64,000 nucleotides of DNA, taken from the NCBI GenBank assembly GCA_044892525.1, contig CM097885.1, forward strand, positions 4,404,001 through 4,468,000, given 5' to 3'. Source of the stretch: Schmidtea polychroa (Eukaryota). The translations under genes and the position numbers were made by a program. Shown here piece after piece: positions 59,161 to 60,104 of this stretch (the first letter of the stretch is position 1; each line of letters begins with the position of its first letter). A model generated the notes under the pieces. The model was not told the origin of the DNA. It made no database searches and was given only the letters and a program-made list of their open reading frames with translations.

Positions 59161-60104
59161 TTTGCAAATATAGTTCCATGTCCTTTCATTCGTTTGTTTA
59201 TACGTGATATTCCATGTCCTTTACGTTTTGGAGCATGAGCTGGAGCTGGTTTTGCAATTTTTACAGATTTCTTAGAAGTCAATGATGTTTTTGATGTAAT
59301 ATCAACCGGTCTCAATCCATTCAGTCCTCGATGTGATGAATGATTATAACTTGTTATTATTTTCGGTAAAGCATTTACCCATTTTTTATTACCTTGATGC
59401 ACGAACAATTTCTTTAATCTATCTCTCAATGTTCGATTAAATCTTTCAACATGGGCAGCTTTGTATTGAGAATGTACCGAGTAGTGATTTATTTTCAGTT
59501 TGTCGAGGATTTGCTTAACTTTGCTATTGTAGAATTCTTTACCTAAAATAATAATAATAATACTAATAATAATAATAATAATAATAATAATAATAATAAT
59601 AATAATAATAATAATAATAATAATAATAATAATAATAATAATAATAATAATAATAATAATAATAATAATAATAATAATAATAATAATAATAATAATAATA
59701 ATAATAATAATAATACCTAAATCTGTTTGCAAGTTATTAGGATGTCCATCTTTAAATAAAATATTAATTGCCTTGGACATTTCTTCTGCAGATTTTGCCT
59801 TGACTGATATTGCTCGTGCAAACCTGCTGTATACATTAATACATGTTAAAATATATTTATTCCCATTGTTAATTTTCGAATAAGGTATCATCTCCATCAA
59901 ATCCATTTGCCATAAATCGTCAATACCAAAATTTTTATACGCTCTTGTTGGAAATCTTTTCCGCATTGGTTTGTTCAAACGGTACGCAAGCTGATCTGAT
60001 AACCACTTCTGGGTTTCTTTTTTCGAATTCGGAACTCTTTTGTTTAATTTTGCCACTCCACCGAAACCGGCTTCGTCTTCTGGGTTCGTCCAAATCTTCT
60101 CCAT
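59157..60104 (-). CDS. Retroviral-like (rve) integrase with 174-nt microsatellite insert/intron and a replaced C-terminus
   Basis: Likely start MEKIW at 60104. GFGG..KL, WQMDL (D1), LQTDLG^KEFYN (D2), AHVERFNRTL (E), YNHSSHR. Insert at 59543-59716. Confidence 0.9.
   Translation of the reverse strand: MEKIWTNPEDEAGFGGVAKLNKRVPNSKKETQKWLSDQLAYRLNKPMRKRFPTRAYKNFGIDDLWQMDLMEMIPYSKINNGNKYILTCINVYSRFARAISVKAKSAEEMSKAINILFKDGHPNNLQTDLGIIIIIIIIIIIIIIIIIIIIIIIIIIIIIIIIIIIIIIIIIIIIIIIIIISIIIIILGKEFYNSKVKQILDKLKINHYSVHSQYKAAHVERFNRTLRDRLKKLFVHQGNKKWVNALPKIITSYNHSSHRGLNGLRPVDITSKTSLTSKKSVKIAKPAPAHAPKRKGHGISRINKRMKGHGTIFAK

Follow-up and report, generated by a model that had tools for sequence, protein, structure and literature searches.

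Several routes by which new spliceosomal introns can arise have been described. An intron can be gained by tandem duplication of a segment containing AGGT, or through double-strand-break repair that leaves short direct repeats (PMC3443670), and cases of this kind have been reported from Daphnia and Drosophila (PMC2809761). According to the available part of the latter source, novel Drosophila introns tend to carry an in-frame stop codon. Coding sequence of low complexity or with tandem repeats can also be intronised, as in the Drosophila gene CG42594 (PMC2809761), and human internal tandem repeats have been linked to intron formation (PMC2812944). Mobile introns known as introners reside in Maverick/Polinton-like elements of dinoflagellates (PMC11957031), and group I introns have been described from Polinton-like elements (PMC12220804). 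In the available portions of PMC12220804, PMC11296320, and PMC10748475, the Polinton introns mentioned are only of group I or homing types, and those portions of PMC11296320, PMC10748475, PMC6431247, and PMC5718144 yielded nothing on introns in integrases. The class of mechanism considered below is known, but the literature searched did not describe any intron that consists purely of a microsatellite and has become fixed in the core of a Polinton integrase. More broadly, that literature, which lay outside Repbase Reports, most subscription papers, and supplements, mentioned neither spliceosomal nor microsatellite introns in the integrase of a Polinton.

The integrase gene considered here lies within the window, which is the whole 64,000-nt stretch of Schmidtea polychroa DNA that was analyzed. 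A first-pass annotation had called attention to a 174-nt GT-(ATT)n-TTAG insert in this gene, and its letters were confirmed: from position 59716 to 59543 the minus strand reads GT(ATT)50 AGT (ATT)5 TTAG. The 8-mer TTTAGGTA was found at both junctions, as had been claimed. Its two copies lie exactly 174 nt apart, and their identity ends at 8 bp on both sides, such that the whole insert can be expressed as an 8-bp duplication plus ATT filler. Translation bore out the prediction of an in-frame, mostly isoleucine addition: the natural reading of the insert is open and supplies 58 extra residues (Gly, an Ile run with one Ser, and Leu).

These residues would enter after TD-L of the rve integrase, directly past the second catalytic Asp. 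The insert splits the Gly codon of a TD-x-G motif after its first base, and this motif aligns with TD-N-G of the TD-N-G-P loop in retroviral integrases, a loop that contacts target DNA. On both sides of the insert, the coding sequence runs colinear with homologues that have none. Because ATT tracts are common in the window (15 including the integrase insert), the microsatellite alone is unremarkable, and what is notable is its site and its duplicated ends.

The element that carries the insert is a Polinton (Maverick) of the adintovirus type (Table 1). The hallmarks found are an integrase with rve domain and chromodomain, a protein-primed family B polymerase, an A32 ATPase, an adenain-like protease, and a capsid protein. 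The rve domain of the window integrase matches PF00665 (E 8.5e-6). A protease piece from a sister copy matches Peptidase_C5 (E 8e-6), and the window piece itself has no Pfam match. The polymerase ORF of sister copy L167 matches phrog_1907 (E 3e-18) and gives no match to Pfam DNA_pol_B_2; this polymerase includes an endonuclease VII-like segment, and a RING-finger ORF (zf-C3HC4_3; L167:7188-7727, plus strand) lies behind it. A database capsid protein (P0125) is 96% identical to the capsid ORF of the same sister, and its predicted fold, a double jelly roll (pLDDT 93), has structural matches to the capsid proteins of iridovirus, PBCV-1, and mavirus (E 7e-17).

The window's own copy of the element is defective, with several genes in pieces. 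Relative to sister L018 it is missing approximately 0.9 kb from the integrase 3' end onward, including the chromodomain end. Self-comparison of the window revealed no inverted pair bracketing the element, and a search of viral contigs gave no match. Within the element, upstream of the polymerase pieces, positions 54706-55927 hold duplicated units of approximately 600 bp with 86- and 29-bp subrepeats and long ATT tracts. Elsewhere, the window contains an open 623-codon MULE transposase with a SWIM finger (43988-45859, minus strand) and a TRAF-like host gene with RING, zf-TRAF, and MATH domains in two ORFs (14233-15641, minus strand).

Table 1. Coordinates of the candidate intron, of the element that carries it, and of related sequences. 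Positions are those of the window unless a sister copy or genomic contig is named; a slash marks the exon-insert junction.
Feature	Position	Strand	Remarks
GT-(ATT)n-TTAG insert, candidate spliceosomal intron	59543..59716	minus	174 nt, phase 1, in frame
8-bp direct repeat TTTAGGTA, 5' copy	59714..59721	minus	holds donor AG/GT
8-bp direct repeat TTTAGGTA, 3' copy	59540..59547	minus	holds acceptor AG/G
Integrase 5' coding part, start codon to second catalytic Asp region	59717..60104	minus	rve domain
Integrase 3' coding part, catalytic Glu region	59248..59542	minus	common with sisters
Packaging ATPase, Pox_A32-like	60742..61359	minus	frame at its end unlike that in sister L037
TBP-like gene, two ORF pieces	61390..61841	plus	head-to-head with ATPase; PF00352, E 1.8e-9
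Major capsid protein	57943..59160	minus	double jelly roll
Adenain-like protease, first part	57723..58001	minus	gene in pieces
Intergenic ATT-rich tract	57243..57477	minus	same orientation as insert; possible filler template (inferred)
Protein-primed DNA polymerase, N-terminal part	52558..54525	minus	in pieces; by-eye comparison with sister L167
Candidate first exon and intron in polymerase leader	L167:2673-2770	plus	
Aminergic GPCR TM6 exon with ATT donor	L171, G000:C1:33075780-33076110	minus	

Judging from its sequence features, the insert is probably a young spliceosomal intron (U2-type) born by duplication of an AG/GT site with ATT filler. This reading draws on the fixation of the insert throughout the family, its single derived gain, selection on the integrase, the presence of long inserts in source elements, the GT and AG ends, and a host precedent. 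Against it stand the lengths of the inserts, which are mostly stop-free multiples of three, the weak donor, the lack of a main-family branch point, and the existence of insert-free integrases that could act in trans.

The 5' junction is present at 1,943 places (968 + 975) in the 781-Mb genome, and an insert-free junction probe for the insert-bearing family has no match anywhere in that genome. GT(ATT)n occupies the same site in 60/60 copies sampled by position. The sample was drawn from the 68 places that head the listing for contig C1; of the other eight, seven were already in the data set and one was left out. In the 55 sampled copies that retain both anchors the insert spans 45-177 nt with a median of 96, a value left unchanged in a hand count that added back the remaining places of the 68. 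Its length is a multiple of three in 50 of these 55 copies, and in-frame stops occur in none. The remaining five comprise one copy with a small deletion behind the tract and four that are rearranged at it (L041, L049, L053, and L062). The breakpoint partners of these four were polymerase sequence in two cases, an unmapped sequence in one, and in L041 the downstream intergenic ATT tract; the integrase tract of L041 is joined to the end of the tract equivalent to 57243..57477. The same type of insert was also found at the same site in 30/30 best sister loci (81-174 nt), a set biased toward long inserts by the query.

An insert of variable length at one site in all 30 and all 60 copies is what the first-pass annotation had proposed as the mark of a family trait. 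Its counterpart, a one-off disabling insertion absent from sister copies, does not describe this family, whose sister copies all carry the insert. A lesion of a single copy is ruled out by the 1,943 junctions together with the two samples, and chance by the recurrence of the same insert type at the same site in both. An assembly artefact is ruled out by interruption patterns within the repeat that are inherited and specific to subfamilies. Insert length is not correlated with distance to the nearest copy, which serves as a proxy for age (rho 0.06, n=51).

Selection acted on the integrase in lineages that all carry the insert. Three results establish this, namely the dN/dS of the catalytic core, an excess of synonymous changes among shared variants, and the retention of catalytic residues. 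In 5/5 pairs of insert-bearing subfamilies, core dN/dS is 0.08-0.17 at dS 0.16-0.38, with the pair L002-L098 excluded as misaligned. Variants found in at least four copies comprise 75 synonymous versus 51 non-synonymous changes (omega approximately 0.17), and singletons comprise 52 versus 152 (omega 0.71; Fisher p 9e-10 for common versus singleton variants). These counts take each of the two coding parts by itself, with 93 and 88 of the 97 loci contributing, and one stop call among the common variants was caused by a private codon of the reference. Of 86 full-length pieces, 85 retain the codons for both catalytic Asp residues, and the catalytic Glu is intact in 66/66. The D, G, E, F, and Y residues that flank the insert site are invariant in an alignment of 90 sequences.

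Long inserts were also carried by elements that gave rise to new copies. One subfamily, marked by ATG before the final TTAG, comprises 36 dispersed copies. All 20 newly sampled members have inserts of 114-186 nt, with a median of 150 versus 96 in the family sample (p 8e-9), and nine further members have inserts of 135-171 nt, so that the length data cover 29 of the 36 copies. Two AAT interruptions are common to 16 of the 20, and the run between them, which is only five to seven units long, has stayed short, indicating that short runs do not inflate quickly. A replicating source element therefore carried approximately 50 extra codons at the site. The inheritance of long inserts by this subfamily argues against a tiny loop that expands only after integration. 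AAT interruptions stand at 29/44 in the inserts versus 9/42 in the window background, many of them shared by descent.

These data weigh on a rival explanation that involves no splicing, in which integrases with long inserts no longer function and the family relies for its integration on enzymes supplied in trans, either by insert-free sister families or by rare members with short inserts, the latter being where selection on the gene would operate. Potential helpers do exist. Related families contribute 109 junctions without an insert to the genome, and many of these lie in ORFs that are open over their full length, but these families are only 76-81% identical in DNA to the insert-bearing family and far fewer in number. 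Likewise, seven copies genome-wide have exact flanks and inserts of 36 nt or less (24-36 nt), but they are set against 1,943 and appear as scattered tips beside long-insert copies. The tract is clearly labile, given that repeat length changes faster than point mutations accumulate (identical 3' coding parts carry inserts of 75 and 141 nt) and that 4/60 sampled copies are broken at it, yet short ATT runs have been stable in the 36-copy subfamily. Moreover, purifying selection on the core between insert-bearing subfamilies would not be expected for a passenger gene. Integration in trans is, in our judgment, unlikely to account for the family.

Among 92 inserts, all start with GTATTA and 89 end in AG; an AG end is likewise present in 97 of the first 100 listed among 1,032. 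The family has diverged too little for this conservation of GT and AG to be separated from its youth. Typical introns have a G at position +5 of the donor and, close to their 3' end, both a branch point and a pyrimidine tract. The donor of the insert is without the +5 G, and main-family inserts present no branch point near the acceptor that fits the general consensus; a planarian splice consensus was not found in the literature searched. Degenerate branch sites are available within the repeat, and TTAAT mostly lies 40-110 nt from the end. In a poly-T subfamily (approximately 91% identical, 9-10 copies), TTAAT lies 12-14 nt before the end, with a run of 8-10 T residues and a terminal AG. In five of nine poly-T inserts the length departs from a multiple of three, and stop-free flanks are present in eight of the nine copies. 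This arrangement looks like maturation of an acceptor, a reading weakened by the possibility of homopolymer slippage after insertion and by two pairs of copies that resemble local duplicates. In the positional sample the frame never demands splicing, because 50/55 inserts are multiples of three and none contains an in-frame stop.

The host itself seems to use GT(ATT)n donors, as suggested by the TM6 exon of an aminergic GPCR that ends in CAG/GT(ATT)21. This exon was one of four sites examined among 143 of similar sequence; the other three are non-coding, and the acceptor of the GPCR intron was not located. In sister L167, the polymerase leader contains a candidate 46-nt first exon followed by a 52-nt, phase-1 GT-AG intron that includes ATT repeats, for which an in-frame unspliced start is a possible alternative. 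Within the window, an (ATT)30 tract bounded by GT and AG (33975-34086, plus strand) lies upstream of a GATA zinc-finger exon recognized by eye (37442-37609). It is a possible ATT-filled host intron, although no open spliced frame across it was resolved.

Existing sequence records were also searched for traces of the junction. Four sequencing runs, none recorded as RNA, covered both flanks of short-insert sister L037. The alignment skipped 51 repeat letters (1502-1552) and dropped rows there, and the low depth at that point is an artefact of the skip. Among 85 candidate short database proteins, four matched across the junction, and none is an insert-free form of the family. The database protein P0124 has the 5' part of the family's integrase joined at the insert site to its last 15 residues. 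In none of the eight most frequent contexts listed (85 loci) does an AG precede the join point, which makes a DNA deletion or mis-assembly more likely than splicing as the origin of this protein.

It is also conceivable that the insert is not spliced and is translated as a tolerated poly-isoleucine loop of 15-60 residues, perhaps serving as a membrane or aggregation tag. The frame and the lack of stops in 50 of 55 sampled copies would permit this, but the frame is often broken in the poly-T subfamily. In an AlphaFold model of a natural long-insert ORF, the core fold and its secondary structure are kept and the insert forms a helical hairpin (pLDDT 60-75), a prediction that is neutral on integrase activity. 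Such a hairpin would have a hydropathy of 4.5, the maximum of the scale, and would sit in the counterpart of the retroviral TD-N-G-P loop, between residues that are invariant in 90 sequences, at a point where no homologue has even a one-residue insertion. We find a translated loop quite improbable.

The insert represents a single and recent gain in one monophyletic clade. It is absent from 111/111 homologous proteins that have the D-x-G motif in the scanned range (120 listed, with the best at 73-75% identity), and none of the 111 has an insertion of one or more residues at the site. It is likewise absent from 32/32 metagenome loci that cover the site (of 37), and the 109 junctions that belong to other Polinton families of this genome are all without it. 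A tree built from the 3' coding part unites all 91 rows that carry the insert in a single clade (100/100, stem 0.15), and four insert-free rows are the ones with 76-81% DNA identity to the family. This tree took in 95 of 105 loci with short rows left out, and its bootstrap had not fully settled. Insert-free sisters had been proposed as a means to date the gain, and the existence of such families beside one insert-bearing clade agrees with that use. AG/GT is found at the site in 11 of the first 100 listed insert-free junctions in the genome and in 8 of 32 metagenome loci. The nearest insert-free row, L101, has GG/GT, with a weakly supported placement (92/51).

Of the two origins that the first-pass annotation had offered, AG/GT duplication with microsatellite filler is favored, because no homologue examined outside the clade holds an intron at the site and the 8-bp repeat is intact. 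That an old small intron was later overrun by ATT expansion is highly improbable: the GT-AG ends would suit it, and elements of this type seem to have further small introns rich in A and T, such as the L167 candidate, but the same two observations stand against it, and subfamilies up to 9% apart have no non-repeat remnant in common. Template switching or a repair insertion is a plausible source of the insert, since the element has a second ATT tract, oriented like the insert and a few kilobases downstream of it, and one copy has recombined between the two tracts.

Beyond the integrase, V-AGGT(ATT)6 occurs at 143 other sites in the genome versus 57 for a reversed control. A genome-wide scan for ATT introns with duplicated AGGT ends had been suggested, and none of the four sites examined among these 143 is of that form. 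A general machinery that inserts ATT with target duplication is rejected, as a comparable flanking duplication is missing from the window's 14 other ATT/AAT tracts and from the four sites examined. An introner, for which many unrelated sites with target duplications or terminal repeats would be expected, is rejected as well: the duplicated end does not directly follow the tract at any of the four. Several AAGGT(ATT)n sites (for example C1 26813469, 58233068, 16341690, and 65183282) have an integrase junction on the opposite strand at a distance of approximately 5.3-5.7 kb, and these probably represent another ATT tract within an element subfamily. One such site, L168, is non-coding.

The birth of the proposed intron can be pictured as follows. 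In one repair or polymerase template-switch event, 8 bp around an exonic AG/GT would have been duplicated and the space between the resulting copies filled from an (ATT)n tract. The first 8-bp copy would then serve as donor and the second as acceptor, and the U-rich repeat might offer degenerate branch points and a pyrimidine-rich tract. Removal of the insert from integrase pre-mRNA by the host spliceosome would yield a normal catalytic core; without splicing, the RNA would specify tens of consecutive isoleucines, in frame, beside the active-site Asp. Given this in-frame, stop-free design, neither outcome would have triggered decay at birth. The founder lineage would subsequently have expanded to approximately 1,900 copies while repeat length drifted on, and one subfamily may have shifted its 3' end toward a textbook acceptor. 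The intron reading of the first-pass annotation receives indirect but strong support from the family-wide presence and variable length of the insert, purifying selection on the integrase, and the insert-free sister families; the version that began with an old intron is disfavored.

A stronger claim would be that a functional, microsatellite-only intron was born in one step within the active-site loop of an integrase, templated by the element's own ATT tract, and that integrase output depends on host splicing and repeat length. We regard this as doubtful. Gating of integration by splicing, which had also been suggested, is conceivable. If the claim is true, the balance between integration and free replication would depend on host splicing and on repeat length, and the approximately 1,900 copies would be replicate lineages in which the maturation of an intron's branch point and of its pyrimidine tract is recorded.

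It is rare that both the source of a newborn intron and the mechanism of its birth can be read from sequence. In the present case, one genome holds the duplicated splice site, the filler, insert-free relatives, and approximately 1,900 descendants in several subfamilies. The minimum information for a working intron and the maturation of its signals thereby become directly testable. Either outcome would be unusual. If the insert is spliced, an (ATT)n tract with little else in it is removed efficiently enough to support the genome's large Polinton expansion; if it is not, an integrase lineage has been under selection despite tens of isoleucines beside a catalytic Asp. On a practical level, annotation will mistake such elements for dead ones, and repeat masking conceals the junction.

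The element matches known Polinton/Maverick (adintovirus-type) elements in its set of integrase, polymerase, ATPase, protease, and capsid genes, and differs in having an integrase that is interrupted family-wide. In common with the dinoflagellate introners, it presents a spliceosomal-type intron, here a candidate, inside a Polinton-like element. However, as far as the available part of PMC11957031 describes them, introners are mobile families that occupy many unrelated sites and were mostly acquired after integration, whereas the present insert is found at one site, is inherited family-wide, and is without terminal inverted repeats. In the cases of intronisation, to the extent that the accessible sections of these sources detail them, the repeat is likewise of unstable length and the unspliced form in frame; unlike there, the ancestral site here is an invariant catalytic loop, and the repeat was therefore added rather than converted from coding sequence. 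Gains by AGGT duplication or repair, as presented in the portions available, differ in that the filler here is a pure trinucleotide microsatellite with no in-frame stop and the site is the integrase core of a mobile element with approximately 1,900 copies, the intron being a candidate only. They resemble the present insert in that the two splice sites both derive from a duplicated AG/GT, the junctions lie within a direct repeat 8 bp long or longer, relatives are without the intron, and the donor is weak.
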